DNA of 64,000 nucleotides from Treponema sp. (GTDB lineage Bacteria > Spirochaetota > Spirochaetia > Treponematales > Treponemataceae): NCBI GenBank assembly GCA_051883255.1, contig JBJETJ010000032.1, forward strand, positions 15,562 to 79,561, written 5' to 3'. The position numbers and the translations under genes are program-made. Shown here piece after piece: positions 22,341 through 61,132 of the stretch; the stretch's first letter is position 1; the number at the start of each line of letters is the position of its first letter. The notes under the pieces are model-generated. The model worked only from the letters and a program-made list of their open reading frames with translations. It had not been told where the DNA came from and searched no databases.

Positions 22341-22359
22341 ACTCAAACTCCCCCCCCCC

Positions 22360-22959
22360 TCACACCCCCGTCAAATCCTCCTCCAGCAAACTCAAATCCG
22401 TAACCGCATTCCGCCTGAACCTCGTCACGTGCTCTTCAAGGTTCTTCATCACAGTTTCAGAATCTGCGCCTGTCGTATGGTACATAAAAAACGGCGCGTA
22501 CAAATCCATTGCGTAGACCTCAGGCGTTCCTGCTTTCATATAGCCGAGTGCAATCAGCTGTTCAAACATTGCCGACATCGACTGAACAGGGCCGTCAATA
22601 AAAATCTGCCTGTATATTTTTTTCATCTCCGGGTTTTTAAACTGTTCAATCAAAAGCAGCTGGCGGAATTTTGTAATCCATTCATCTGTAGTCTGATACA
22701 CAAACATTCCCATACAGATTTTTTCGACGTCTTTCCATCGGAGCGTTTCAAGCTTTACTTCCGACTGTTTGTCCTGCAACCGCGTCATGCACACATTTAC
22801 AATGCAGTCTAAAATTTCCTGCTTGCTTTTAAAATGCTTGTAAATCACCGCATCAGACGCGTTTATGCTTCTTGCAATCATTCGCGTAGACACGGCATCA
22901 AAACCGTTGACCGAAAAAAGTTTCAGCGATTCAAAAATAATATTTTCTTTCGTCGTCAT
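22360..22959 (-). CDS. TetR/AcrR family transcriptional regulator
   Basis: MTTKENIIFESLKLFSVNGFDAVSTRMIA...AVIYKHFKSKQEI HTH; start at 22959 overlaps the upstream stop (ATGA). Confidence 0.9.
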   Translation of the reverse strand: MTTKENIIFESLKLFSVNGFDAVSTRMIARSINASDAVIYKHFKSKQEILDCIVNVCMTRLQDKQSEVKLETLRWKDVEKICMGMFVYQTTDEWITKFRQLLLIEQFKNPEMKKIYRQIFIDGPVQSMSAMFEQLIALGYMKAGTPEVYAMDLYAPFFMYHTTGADSETVMKNLEEHVTRFRRNAVTDLSLLEEDLTGV

Positions 22960-24086
22960 ACCAATTCTTTTGAACCCATAATTATTTTTCTTGTGTCTTT
23001 GCCTGCCATACAGCCGTAAGTACACGCACCGCAGCCGATACATTCATTCACGTTGAGCGCTTTTGCCGCTTGCGCCGTCAGTTCATTTTTTTCTGCAAGC
23101 CCGACTACTTTACAAACTTCAACTTTTGCAGGACAGTTTCTGCTGCAAGCTCCGCATCCCCTGCACTTTGAAGCGCCCTCGTAATCTGGCGCGTTGCCGA
23201 GTGCAATGTAGCCTGTTTCTTCGGTGACAGTTTCGCCGTTTTCTGCCTTGTGACTAAAAAGTGCGCCCGAGCCTGTGTAAAGCGTTTTGCCTTTGCGCTG
23301 TTCAATGCTGAACAACTCAGACGCGATTTCTTCAACAGAGTCCCCCACTGTCACTCTGGTAACTTTTGCCTCCCCTTCCGTGATGTCTGCGACCGTAATG
23401 TATTTTTTGCGGCACGAGAACTCGTCGTCAAACGCTTCCCTTATTGCAAGCACTGTCTGAATATTCAAAACAAGAATTCCACATTCAGACGGAAGCTTTG
23501 ACTTTGGGATTTCTTTTCCTGTTACGGCTTTAATGAGGAAGTTTTCGTAGCCGACAGGAAAGCGGTCTGCAACTTTTATCTGGGTGACGTTCAGGGTTGT
23601 GTCGAGAGGTTCTTTTGTTGCAAGGATTACATGCTGAATTTTGAGCGCCTGTTTTACAAGTTCAATTCCTTCAATGACTGTATCAATGCGGTTTCTGTAA
23701 ATCCAGCCGTCGTGGACAAGACCCGGATCACATTCTGCGCCGTTTACGATAAGAAGCCCGTCCTCTGAATTAAAGCTTTCAAGTTTTTTGTACGTTAAAA
23801 ATCCGTTGCCGCTTTTTCCGGTGAGAGCCGTTTTTTTGCAAAGTTCAATTAACTGCCCGCGCGTAACTCCGCCAGGTGAACTTATCAAAGGCGCTTTGTC
23901 CTCTGTCCTAAACTCCTGAAACGCAATGTCGTCAAGACGTGCAATTTTTTTAATCCGCGCTTTCGGGCAATTCTTTGCGCGTTCAAACAATTTTGTCTGA
24001 AAATGCTTTCCTGCTTTTTTCTGTGCAAGCTTGAGTTTCTTATTTGAAGAAACCATTTTTTTGTTTATGAGGCTTATATTTTCCAT
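22956..24086 (-). CDS. RnfC-like iron-sulfur flavoprotein (Complex I 51K domain + SLBB + 2x 4Fe-4S)
   Basis: LTGKSGNGF, IVNGAECDPGLVHD, YP-like FPVGYE, C-terminal CRGCGACSRNCP and CIGCGACTYGC. Confidence 0.75.
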   Translation of the reverse strand: MENISLINKKMVSSNKKLKLAQKKAGKHFQTKLFERAKNCPKARIKKIARLDDIAFQEFRTEDKAPLISSPGGVTRGQLIELCKKTALTGKSGNGFLTYKKLESFNSEDGLLIVNGAECDPGLVHDGWIYRNRIDTVIEGIELVKQALKIQHVILATKEPLDTTLNVTQIKVADRFPVGYENFLIKAVTGKEIPKSKLPSECGILVLNIQTVLAIREAFDDEFSCRKKYITVADITEGEAKVTRVTVGDSVEEIASELFSIEQRKGKTLYTGSGALFSHKAENGETVTEETGYIALGNAPDYEGASKCRGCGACSRNCPAKVEVCKVVGLAEKNELTAQAAKALNVNECIGCGACTYGCMAGKDTRKIIMGSKELV

Positions 24087-34395: not shown

Positions 34396-34424
34396 AAAAA
34401 AAGGCTGTCCGACGGACAGCCTTT
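34396..34424 (-). terminator. Intrinsic terminator of the outer-membrane protein gene
   Basis: AAAGGCTGTCC-GAC-GGACAGCCTTT with A-run at 34396-34402. Confidence 0.8.
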
Positions 34425-34443: not shown

Positions 34444-35160
34444 TTACCAGTTAAAAGAAATTCCGACATAAATTTCATTGTTGAAGTAGTTTACAGAATC
34501 AGCGTCATATTGTTCTAAATTCTTTGAATATGATTTTGTAGGAATTACTGCAAAACGGTAACCGATAACAGGACTTACAGGACTGTTTGGAACAAACTTT
34601 GCCTGAACTTCTGCACCAAATCCAACTCCGCCAATAATGTACATATCTGTTGTTCTAGAATATCCATCACCACCTTCATCTAAATACTCTGACGAGAACA
34701 TTCCAAATCCATAAGCGAGACCTAATCCAATATCAAATTTTACGACATTTCCAAGATTAATTCCTACAGCAGGTCCGATGATACCGTTAAAATGAGCAGC
34801 TAAAAAAAGATCCTTCTCTTTCATTTGTCTAGAAACAGGGTTTCCTAAAGAATCAGGACCTTTCCAAGCCATTTTTGTAGTACCACCAACTCCGCCATTA
34901 AAACCAACTACAAAACCAAGACCGAATACATCATTAAAATTAAACAGATGCCATGTTGAAAGATCAAAATCAAATGTTACGGAAGATACATCAGTATTAG
35001 TCTTTTTAGTATAATCACTAAATGATTCTGATTTTTCCATTGCAGCAGAATCAAATCCTACACCAAGGTGCAGCTGGATATCTCCGTCATAAGCACCCCT
35101 TGCAAATGCACTGCCTGCCATAACGCACAGTACAGCAAAAATTCCTATAACTTTTTTCAT
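34444..35160 (-). CDS. Exported, probable outer-membrane beta-barrel protein
   Basis: Signal peptide MKKVIGIFAVLCVMAGSAFA; alternating Gly/aromatic beta-strands; C-terminal YVGISFNW. Confidence 0.75.
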   Translation of the reverse strand: MKKVIGIFAVLCVMAGSAFARGAYDGDIQLHLGVGFDSAAMEKSESFSDYTKKTNTDVSSVTFDFDLSTWHLFNFNDVFGLGFVVGFNGGVGGTTKMAWKGPDSLGNPVSRQMKEKDLFLAAHFNGIIGPAVGINLGNVVKFDIGLGLAYGFGMFSSEYLDEGGDGYSRTTDMYIIGGVGFGAEVQAKFVPNSPVSPVIGYRFAVIPTKSYSKNLEQYDADSVNYFNNEIYVGISFNW

Positions 35161-35201
35161 AAAAACCCCCTATAAAATTGTTTTGTAAAAAAAGTGCTTC
35201 T

Positions 35202-35228
35202 ATTATACCCCCCCCCACAAAAAGTCAA
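35202..35228 (-). promoter_or_regulatory. Promoter with G9 tract in the -35/-10 spacer (TTGACT-15-TATAAT)
   Basis: -35 at 35228-35223, -10 at 35207-35202, C9 on the + strand at 35208-35216. Confidence 0.75.
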
Positions 35229-35295: not shown

Positions 35296-35700
35296 TTATG
35301 ACTTGGTGAGGTCGGAGAGGGTTACGCTGTCGAGGTAGTCTTCAACAAGTTTGTCGAGTTTTGTCCACATTGGAAGGGTGCGGCAGATTTTTTTACGGTC
35401 GCAGGGAGGAGCGTTTTTGTCAAGACAGGCAACGGGCGCAAGAGTTCCTTCGGTTAGACGGAGAATATCGCCGACACGATATTCCTGCGGTTTTTTGTTC
35501 AATTTGTAACCGCCGCCTTTTCCGTGAACTGCATCGACAAATTTATTTTTTGACAAAAGCGTCATAATTGATTCGATATATTTTTGCGAAATTCCCTGAC
35601 GTTCGGCAATTTCTTTTAAAGGGATTCTTTCCTGATTTGAATTTTCTGCTAAGTCAATCATCACACGCAGGGCGTATCGTCCTCTTGTTGAAACTATCAT
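35296..35700 (-). CDS. Rrf2-family transcriptional regulator (CymR/IscR-like)
   Basis: MIVSTRGRYALRVMIDLA, EIAERQGISQKYIE, GKGGGYKL, EGTLAPVAC. Confidence 0.92.
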   Translation of the reverse strand: MIVSTRGRYALRVMIDLAENSNQERIPLKEIAERQGISQKYIESIMTLLSKNKFVDAVHGKGGGYKLNKKPQEYRVGDILRLTEGTLAPVACLDKNAPPCDRKKICRTLPMWTKLDKLVEDYLDSVTLSDLTKS

Positions 35701-35865
35701 AAATTATCTACCTTCCTTATAGATAAATAGATTATAACAAATTTTTTGAGAACTGAAAAGATTTAACTCAGGCGGAAGTTTTAAAAAGTGATTTCTATTT
35801 TACGAAACAGACTGTATAATAAAACAGTTCAGCAGAAATTCATCTGCAACGCAAAAGGAAAAACT

Positions 35866-59090: not shown

Positions 59091-60833
59091 TTATTTTGAA
59101 TTCAACACACAAAAATCATAATAACTAAACAGCCCCTTCTCTTGTATATAAAAATCATCAAAATTTAAATCACCATTTGTATGCAGCTCGCGTTCAGAAA
59201 TAAATATACACGGAATTTCATCTGAATGTTTTTCTTGAATTTCTGAAATATCAGATATTAAAAAGATACGGTTATCATCATTCAGATATGGGATTATTTC
59301 ACCGTATTTCCATCTTGCCTTTCCTTCTATAAATATCGGGAGTTCTGTATTTACGACTTTTTTTATTCTGTCAAAACCTGCATCATCGATATGCTCGACA
59401 ACTGATGGTTTTCCATTTAAATTGATTAAAGACACACACAAGAAAAATGATGCCAGTACAGAAAATGTATAGTTCAAAAATTCTCTTTTGAAAAATCCGA
59501 CAAATGCAAGTGAAAAAATTGGAAATATCGGAGCAATATATCTAAGAGTTTTCCCAGGTGCACACCATAGAATTAAAAATAAAGAAACAAATGCTACAGA
59601 CAGAATAATACTCAATAAAAAATTCTTTACATTTCGTTTTGAAGATAACAGAAATAAAACCAAAAACAAAACAATAAGAATAAAATACAAAGCAAAAAAG
59701 ATATTCTTTGAAAGAATCATCCCGTAAAAACCATTAATAACAGAAAAAAAGTTTGCACTGAGATTTGCCAATCCAAAATTACTGAAAGCTTCTTGTCCAC
59801 GATAACCAGATATACCATCTCCAAAACTTAAATACAACAGTTTTGCAACGATTAAAGAACAAAAAAGCATATATATGAAAAATTTTAATAAATTATAATC
59901 TTTTTTTCGCAGACAGATGATTACAAGTATCAGACCATAAAAACCTATTATAATCATATTAAAATAGGCAGAAAGCATAGTCAGTGCCAGCACAAATATT
60001 CCGATTATAAAATTCTTTTTTGATTCAACTTTTTGATTATTATAGACAGCCTGTAAACAGCAGGTTACATAATATGTAATAATTATTACAAAAAGCTGCT
60101 GAAGTTCGTATGGTCGCATAAAAATCGTAAGAGAAAGACTTGCAGGATTTATAAATGCAATTATGAGGCAAGTAAAAACCAAAAAAGAATTCTTTGTAAA
60201 TATTCTTATCAAAAATATCATGAAGAAAAATGAAACCGCAAAAATCAGAATGTTTAAAGAACAGCCTCTCCAAAATATATAATTTAAATCATTTGTTTTT
60301 ACGCCTGTAAACCATAATCTATAAATTGAATAATATAAATTTGTATGTGGAGAATCTTTGTTATCTATATATAAATTCCAGACATCGTCTAAAGAATCTT
60401 TTACTGACGGATCATTCCAAAGAGATAAATCTTTCAACTCTTTTCCTGAATATTCTTTATCGCCATCAAGTTCAGCCAGTTTTCCCCAAAAGCCATATTC
60501 ATTTCTGTTGGAAATTCCTATACTCAACGCTTCATCAATATGCATGCTTTTCTTGGCATTGATATAAAAACACCTTACACCTATCAGAACGACAAATAAA
60601 AGCAGAAGTTCTATGCCATGTGTTTTGGAATTTAAAATATTTTTAATATCATCTCGTATCTTAAATATGCCAGTGTGAAGTGTAAAAAAATCCAGGAATT
60701 GAAAAAAATACCCTGCAAGAAAAAGGACAGTACAAATACAAATAAAGATAAAGAATTTTATTTCTTTTTGAACGATTATTTCATGCCATACAGAATGTGT
60801 AAGAGGTCTTCCAACATATCGTTCACCAATCAA
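59091..60833 (-). CDS. Polytopic membrane protein, GT-C-fold glycosyltransferase-like
   Basis: About a dozen hydrophobic segments; first loop with HIDE, DSPHTNLYY and MRPYEL motifs typical of ArnT/PMT-like enzymes; AT-rich; TTG start uncertain. Confidence 0.6.
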   Translation of the reverse strand: MIGERYVGRPLTHSVWHEIIVQKEIKFFIFICICTVLFLAGYFFQFLDFFTLHTGIFKIRDDIKNILNSKTHGIELLLLFVVLIGVRCFYINAKKSMHIDEALSIGISNRNEYGFWGKLAELDGDKEYSGKELKDLSLWNDPSVKDSLDDVWNLYIDNKDSPHTNLYYSIYRLWFTGVKTNDLNYIFWRGCSLNILIFAVSFFFMIFLIRIFTKNSFLVFTCLIIAFINPASLSLTIFMRPYELQQLFVIIITYYVTCCLQAVYNNQKVESKKNFIIGIFVLALTMLSAYFNMIIIGFYGLILVIICLRKKDYNLLKFFIYMLFCSLIVAKLLYLSFGDGISGYRGQEAFSNFGLANLSANFFSVINGFYGMILSKNIFFALYFILIVLFLVLFLLSSKRNVKNFLLSIILSVAFVSLFLILWCAPGKTLRYIAPIFPIFSLAFVGFFKREFLNYTFSVLASFFLCVSLINLNGKPSVVEHIDDAGFDRIKKVVNTELPIFIEGKARWKYGEIIPYLNDDNRIFLISDISEIQEKHSDEIPCIFISERELHTNGDLNFDDFYIQEKGLFSYYDFCVLNSK

Positions 60834-61132
60834 AATTATAAGATTTCTGATTTGCGGAATAAATAAAAGGAGAGAAGCCCCCCCCCATTACTATACATAG
60901 AATTGCCAGATATTTAAAAATTTTACTTATTTTGCTTCGGTTTAAATTCACTTTGAGTGCCTCATAAAAAGAAAATATAAAAATATTCTATAAGAAATCA
61001 ACTAAAAAAACAATAAAACCGCCTGACAAATTCACAGAAAATATATCGCAAAAGCAAAATACGGTAAAAATCTGCAAAAATTGCAAAAAAACTTGACAAA
61101 TTAAAAAACACAGGTGAAAATATAACCATATT

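Follow-up and report, generated by a model that had tools for sequence, protein, structure and literature searches.

Poly-G switches in promoter spacers are textbook devices of the meningococcus and of Treponema pallidum, where they are read as means of immune evasion. A sigma-70 promoter is most active with 17 ± 1 nt between its −35 and −10 boxes and weakens as the spacing moves away from that range. In Neisseria meningitidis, the spacer of the porA promoter carries a G tract with which surface expression is high at 11G, 2-fold lower at 10G, and 13-fold lower at 9G (PMC3639595), so that porA behaves as a graded dimmer rather than as a strict on/off switch. In T. pallidum, the gene for the OmpW homologue tp0126 carries a poly-G tract between its −35 and −10 boxes, and the promoter is described as optimal at a spacing of 17 nt (Giacani et al., 2015, as summarised in PMC7864442). 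Poly-G tracts also occur in the promoters of T. pallidum tprE/G/J and tprL, with G9 the commonest length and a within-strain range of G7–G11 (PMC7864442).

The locus described here lies in a window of 64,000 nucleotides (the whole stretch of DNA that was analysed, from contig JBJETJ010000032.1 of assembly GCA_051883255.1), and the host genome belongs to a large gut/rumen Treponema genus. A promoter with a spacer composed largely of nine Gs precedes the gene for a predicted exported protein, P0001 (Table 1). As with tp0126, the host is a Treponema sensu lato, the poly-G tract lies between −35 and −10 boxes of the sigma-70 type, and the predicted product is a small outer-membrane barrel of the eight-stranded type with a cleavable signal peptide; the parallel with T. 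pallidum drawn in the original prediction thus fits, the host itself being a Treponema. Unlike tp0126, P0001 cannot be linked to OmpW by sequence (Pfam and the PDB gave no match), and its host is a gut commensal, not the agent of syphilis; furthermore, tp0126 has measured within-strain variation and transcription that depends on tract length, whereas for P0001 both are predictions. The likeness to porA consists of a G tract in the promoter spacer of an outer-membrane protein gene, with 11G corresponding to 17 bp and 9G to 15 bp in porA, although N. meningitidis belongs to another phylum, PorA forms a porin of 16 strands, and its switching has been demonstrated experimentally. With tprE/G/J and tprL, the locus shares the placement of a poly-G tract in the promoter of an outer-membrane protein gene, but the predicted direction is the opposite: lengthening would activate P0001, whereas tpr tracts of at most 8 are permissive and longer ones lower activity (PMC7864442). 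Three features of porA and tp0126, the closest known systems, are present (a homopolymer between the −35 and −10 boxes at a gene start, over-representation, and a predicted exported product), and the P0001 poly-G promoter is probably a slippage-driven expression dial as in T. pallidum and N. meningitidis.

In our main reading, to which we give a probability of roughly 65%, a sigma-70-type promoter with a slippage-prone G9 spacer serves as a heritable and reversible expression dial for a small outer-membrane barrel gene. The promoter would drive a monocistronic P0001 gene, and the gain or loss of a G at replication would change the spacer (15 nt with G9, 16 nt with G10, and 17 nt with G11), thereby dialling transcription up or down in a manner that is heritable yet reversible. 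With a spacer two Gs short of the optimal 17 nt, the G9 of the assembly would most likely mean low expression, and slippage-born variants with G10–G12 would express more. By analogy with porA 9G, the G9/15-nt configuration is probably one of low expression, because promoters in this genome peak at 17 nt and those of the paralogues that lack poly-G have spacers of 16–18 nt. The original prediction likewise took the present state as low/OFF, a reasonable view in light of the spacer statistics, porA, and tp0126, and it proposed that the product may be a phage receptor or antigen. We infer that the window tract slips at a useful rate and that the P0001 transcript starts at the poly-G promoter.

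Table 1. Features of the P0001 locus (window positions) and promoters of related loci.
Feature	Position	Strand	Basis or remarks
Intrinsic-terminator-like hairpin and T run	34400..34424	minus	20 nt past the stop codon; 11-bp stem with 6 G-C pairs
P0001, 238 aa, predicted signal peptide and small outer-membrane beta-barrel	34444..35160	minus	ORF and model
Predicted 5' UTR, 41 nt	35161..35201	minus	read from sequence
Shine-Dalgarno AGGGGG	35166-35171	minus	read from sequence
−10 hexamer TATAAT	35202..35207	minus	read from sequence; same in the orthologue of the closest species
G9 tract	35208-35216	minus	directly adjoins the −10 box
Spacer TTTTGTGGGGGGGGG (TTTTGT + G9), 15 nt	35208..35222	minus	read from sequence
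−35 hexamer TTGACT	35223..35228	minus	read from sequence; preceded by c (cTTGACT)
Rrf2-family regulator gene	35296..35700	minus	upstream of P0001; Rrf2 match E 4e-39
Promoter-like site of the Rrf2 gene, TTTTCA-17-TATAAT with TG	35731..35759	minus	promoter scan
Promoter in G087 (closest species, 92% identity)			TTGACA-TTTTGA-G9-TATAAT; spacer 15 nt
Promoter in MAG049 (66% identity)			TTGACT-TTTTTCGGGA-G13/14-TACAAT; spacer 20-24 nt over the G10-G14 seen
Promoter in G020			TTGACC + 9 nt + G9 + TAAAAT; spacer 18 nt
Promoter in G017			TTGACA + 7 nt + G9; spacer 16 nt
Promoter in G074			TTGACA + 5 nt + G7; spacer 12 nt
Promoter in G114			interrupted tract GGGGGAGGG; spacer 18 nt
Family members without poly-G			various promoters; spacers 16-18 nt

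The original prediction described TTGACT and TATAAT at 35202-35228, separated by 15 bp that include G9, and held that two more Gs would restore a 17-bp spacer; coordinates, hexamers, and spacer length are all right, as is the arithmetic, since G11 yields 17 nt. On the minus strand, TATAAT lies 41 nt from the ATG (35160), and the transcription start of P0001 is predicted near 35195. The 5' UTR is almost unchanged in the orthologue and resembles those of the paralogues, and a cTTGACTTTTT box is common to the poly-G promoter, its twin on contig C4 (see below), and the paralogue promoters. The consensus promoter scan, which accepts spacers of 16–18 nt only, missed the poly-G promoter because a 15-nt spacer falls outside that range. 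The alternative −35 hexamers that would give a spacing of 16–17 nt, CTTGAC and ACTTGA, agree with the consensus at no more than 1–2 positions and were rejected by inspection. An extended −10 element (TGn) that might compensate for the short spacer is absent, GGG being directly 5' of TATAAT.

The claim that the gene product is an outer-membrane protein was upheld, at the level of prediction, by a signal peptide, an 8-strand barrel model, and structural matches to barrels only. The AlphaFold2 model of P0001, built on 17 homologues (mean pLDDT 89.3), has an N-terminal helix at residues 2–20 (the signal peptide) followed by 8 long antiparallel strands, and the C-terminus (...ISFNW) ends in the aromatic W. 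Foldseek against the PDB matched solely outer-membrane barrels (Ail, OprG/OmpW, OmpA, NspA, OmpX, OmpT/Pla, and OpcA), with E-values of ~4e-6 to 7e-4 and TM-scores of at most 0.59 normalised to the target. Searches of Pfam and NCBIfam at E-values up to 1 gave only noise and no family, and a profile of the 17 homologues searched against PDB sequences at E-values up to 10 gave nothing. We therefore predict that P0001 is a small outer-membrane beta-barrel protein from a family specific to Treponema; as modelled, it is a fold-level analogue of OmpW/OmpA/Ail and not a sequence member of those families.

The dN/dS of P0001 is 0.41 against the 92%-identical orthologue, so the gene is under constraint but evolves fairly fast, a common trait of surface proteins. 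All assemblies compared have an unbroken ORF. Three paralogues are encoded in the genome (57, 45, and 37% identity), none of which has a poly-G promoter. These observations bear on the idea that the promoter belongs to a decaying or permanently silenced copy, the tract having drifted from its functional range while the paralogues serve the function. The presence of the paralogues would suit that idea, as would a spacer two steps off the optimum in every assembly and a spacer of 20–24 nt in all samples of the MAG049 species; we nevertheless consider it very unlikely, given the intact ORF and its dN/dS, the uninterrupted tract, hexamers that are perfect or near-perfect in both this species and the closest one, and the same configuration at the C4 twin promoter.

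The Rrf2 gene lies on the same strand as P0001 across a 135-nt gap and is its upstream neighbour in most contigs of this species and the closest species. Neither a terminator nor a structured RNA was found between the Rrf2 gene and the poly-G promoter (fold z-score −0.62). Read-through from the Rrf2 gene into P0001 is possible; with no terminator between the two genes, an OFF state may be incomplete, and some P0001 transcription may be independent of the tract. It would be a larger step to suppose that P0001 is transcribed mainly as an operon with Rrf2 by read-through and that tract length matters little. The shared strand, the short gap free of terminator-like structure, the recurrence of this neighbour in both species, and the good promoter-like site that the Rrf2 gene has of its own all accord with such an operon, but we judge it rather improbable: a sister-species contig (L042) has a different upstream gene and the same promoter module, sequence conservation between the species sets in again at the −35 box, an unrelated gene on C4 has the same module as its promoter, and the genus-wide association of the architecture with gene starts 18–100 nt downstream speaks for autonomous promoters. 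As a separate observation on this intergenic region, a remnant CTCCGTGTTTGTGCCCC of a ~70-nt intergenic repeat lies upstream of the window's poly-G promoter. The repeat (...GAGTTTTGC...AAATCCGTGTTTGTGAGG...AAATTTACGAGCGC) is conserved and lies just 5' of several barrel-family promoters in two species; its contexts are the upstream regions of L002, L005, and L017, and also C58:14669 and C53:245 in the genome.

In this genome (2.70 Mb, 39.9% G+C), matches to TTGACN-Nk-TATAAT peak at k = 17 (13 matches, against 7 at 16, 6 at 18, and a background of ~2–6), and the 4 matches with k = 15 are at chance level relative to the ~2–6 found per off-peak spacer length. Two of those 4 carry G9, however, and composition cannot explain the G9. 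The window holds 7 overlapping matches to G≥8, in three tracts, against 0.07 expected. Genome-wide, there are 44 G/C tracts of at least 8 (50 of at least 7), and the numbers of runs by length are 11 of 6, 6 of 7, 11 of 8, 21 of 9, 6 of 10, 4 of 11, 1 of 12, and 1 of 23; this bimodal distribution, with its second mode at 9, is the hallmark of contingency tracts that are being maintained. Some 20 of the 44 lie within genes, where a change in tract length opens or closes the reading frame. The poly-G promoter is not a product of chance, and the architecture originally noted is real, recurrent in the genome and the genus, and conserved.

The second of the two G9 promoters, cTTGACTTTTTAC-G9-TATAATAGAA, lies outside the window at C4:4924-4950 (minus strand) and is near-identical to the window's promoter. 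It is 31 nt upstream of the gene for a 322-aa CsgG-family (PF03783) signal-peptide protein, and its tract is G9 in 3/3 other assemblies; a fourth contig ends inside the tract.

Loss of mismatch repair as a source of tract instability is ruled out, MutS1 and MutL both being encoded; slippage rates are thus not raised by missing mismatch repair, and switching rates in this genome are probably moderate. Neisseria and T. pallidum also have MutS and MutL. Campylobacter jejuni resembles the present case in that it is a low-GC gut bacterium with dozens of G/C tracts of 8–11, both intragenic and intergenic and concentrated in surface-glycan loci; it differs in having mostly intragenic tracts and in being without MutS/MutL, whereas the present genome has both (PMC8355987). 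The number of G/C tracts of at least 7 (50) compares with 15 in T. ruminis, a gastrointestinal commensal that had the fewest such tracts in a comparative study (PMC8049484).

Related loci are recorded, among others, in T. bryantii and in Treponema metagenome-assembled genomes from the human gut and the rumen. Among 201 genomes of the genus, the pattern TTGAC-N(4-12)-G(7 or more)-TANNNT with spacers of 10–18 nt gave 247 matches in 88 genomes, against 3 for a reversed-pattern control; spacers of 19–28 nt added 96 matches (4 for the reversed control), for a genus total of 343 versus 7. By spacer length, the counts are ~29 at 14 nt, ~64 at 15, 47 at 16, 25 at 17, ~69 at 18, 60 at 19, 7 at 20, and 8 at 21, those at 14, 15, and 18 nt being scaled from a listed sample of 150. 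The distribution is bimodal (15–16 and 18–19 nt) with a trough at 17 nt, shared ancestry being uncorrected, and counts fall sharply outside 14–19 nt, a confinement that is as expected if both hexamers are used. Among the matches listed, G9 is the modal tract length (80/150), and the combination of a 15-nt spacer with G9 is common (21/150). Homologous promoter boxes carry G7–G10 across species. When one promoter from each of 30 species was sampled, 25 of the 30 had an ORF with a Shine-Dalgarno sequence 18–190 nt downstream, and every one of these 25 encodes an N-terminal signal peptide, in most cases with a lipobox cysteine.

Because the 15-nt, G9 class is common genus-wide, it could be a working configuration and not an OFF state. 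This leads to a reading in which the promoter is real but G9/15 nt is its normal working state, the tract being a stable structural spacer (for example, through altered helical geometry) and no switch at all. G9 as the modal length in both genome and genus is what such a spacer would give, and genus-wide spacers that peak at 15–16 and 18–19 nt, not at 17 nt, would fit an optimum shifted by the tract. We regard it as unlikely on balance: non-poly-G promoters of the same family and genome favour 16–18 nt, homologous boxes vary from G7 to G10 across species, and both porA and tp0126 have their optimum at 17 nt even with a G tract in the spacer (PMC7864442, PMC3639595). Comparison of assemblies, set out below, bears on the same question from both sides.

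As a consensus-level substitute for reads, independent assemblies encoding an identical protein were compared; consensus sequences cannot reveal minority tract-length variants. In this species, for which all compared contigs derive from one study (SRR306168xx), the poly-G promoter tract is G9 in 5/5 other assemblies, and in the closest species, G087, it is G9 with a 15-nt spacer in 6/6 assemblies from several studies. A control coding tract at 60878-60886 is likewise G9 in 6/6 same-study assemblies, with a seventh contig ending in the tract. Consensus invariance in this species' sample set says little, because the control coding tract and the twin tract are equally invariant and the samples come from one study. 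Independent assemblies give G7 in 3/3 for G074, G9 in 2/2 for G017, and G9 in 3/3 for G020. In the MAG049 species, by contrast with the invariant tracts, the orthologous promoter carries G14 in two contigs, G13 in five, G11 in one, and G10 in two, with identical flanks and a 100% identical protein. Length polymorphism is thus documented at an orthologous promoter, only where the tract is long.

The stable-spacer reading can point to G9 in 12/12 assemblies of two species while point substitutions arose beside the tract; against this stand the G10 to G14 seen between samples of the MAG049 species, the invisibility of minority variants in a consensus, and the equal invariance, in the same samples, of a coding tract that is frameshifted. 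The slipped-strand switch of the original prediction was borne out in part, by slippage at the orthologous MAG049 promoter, but not at the window locus or in the closest species, where only G9 was seen. That prediction also took an invariant tract as evidence against switching, and at consensus level the locus has G9 throughout, a level at which minority variants are invisible and the control is just as invariant.

Several further observations concern the related loci. In the MAG049 orthologue (L048-L057, comprising metagenome-assembled genome and metagenome contigs), the spacer is 20–24 nt in every sample, the tract resembles a longer tract split by a G-to-A change, and the gene has stayed intact despite a −35 box too distant to serve. 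In the closest species (L005/L017, G087:C201:10437-12237) the barrel gene is duplicated in tandem: the first copy has the G9 promoter and the second (67% identity) a normal TTGATA-18-TAAAAT promoter, so that the first may be subject to switching and the second expressed constitutively. Logan contigs L069 and L106 end inside G tracts and L026 breaks off 13 nt past the promoter tract on its downstream side, which is compatible with heterogeneity and also with homopolymer sequencing problems.

The mechanism is textbook, and the P0001 locus adds modest knowledge by itself. Literature searches turned up no account of such switches in Treponema of the gut or rumen, and the wider relevance lies in the apparent extent of the device among commensal treponemes of the gut and rumen (~340 sites in 201 genomes), almost exclusively before genes for exported lipoproteins and outer-membrane proteins. 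Phase variation accordingly looks like a general strategy of colonisation or phage evasion and not like a virulence trait, and a metagenome-assembled consensus may misreport which surface genes treponemes express. The T. pallidum switches are difficult to work on, and cultivable relatives such as T. bryantii could serve as an accessible model for them.

We tentatively raise a broader and somewhat doubtful possibility, that gut and rumen Treponema share a genus-wide combinatorial surface-coat system in which poly-G spacers rest either shorter or longer than the optimal 17 nt. Genes for lipoproteins and outer-membrane proteins, in their hundreds, would each stand behind a poly-G-spacer promoter of one of two design classes, with ~6–7 or ~9–10 non-G bases joined to a G9–G10 ‘attractor’; any given gene would be weakly expressed in most cells, and the rare variants that differ by one or two slips would express it more strongly. 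The direction reported for tprE/G/J and tprL fits the class with the long non-G part (18–19-nt spacers). If true, such a system would amount to bet-hedging on a large scale by a commensal whose mismatch repair is intact. The off-optimum spacer distribution across the genus is the sole part that could surprise a specialist.

The remaining G/C tracts of the genome show a variety of arrangements. The G9 at window positions 60878-60886 (minus strand) lies at the 5' end of the gene for a large multi-pass membrane protein (ORF 59091..60833 and upstream): translation from the upstream GTG would end after 42 aa with G9, whereas G8 would yield a 619-aa protein, so that the tract reads as a classic intragenic ON/OFF tract, currently in a predicted OFF state. 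The G10 at 22350-22359 (minus strand) is directly after the TGA of a TetR-like ORF (22360..23043) and upstream of a 63-aa ORF, and is without the TTGAC/TANNNT architecture. Past the window's end on the same contig, C32:101619-136682 contains fifteen G/C tracts of 8–23 in 35 kb, all G on the minus strand, most of them inside ORFs of tract-dependent length, many followed directly by TATAA, and one of them G23; this is probably a phase-variable surface-glycan locus. Four copies of a repeat of >150 nt (C37:15238, C48:12882, C60:36441, and C62:378) contain ...AATTTTGAC-G9(G8)-TACGGCTCTCTTC... and may represent a mobile element with its own poly-G tract. Finally, composite tracts of T9-10 and G8-12 (TTTTTTTTTTGGGGGGGG...) occur in intergenic positions at C36:391, C64:78869, C53:245, and C32:132973, two of them directly after terminator-like sequence, and may be double homopolymer switches.
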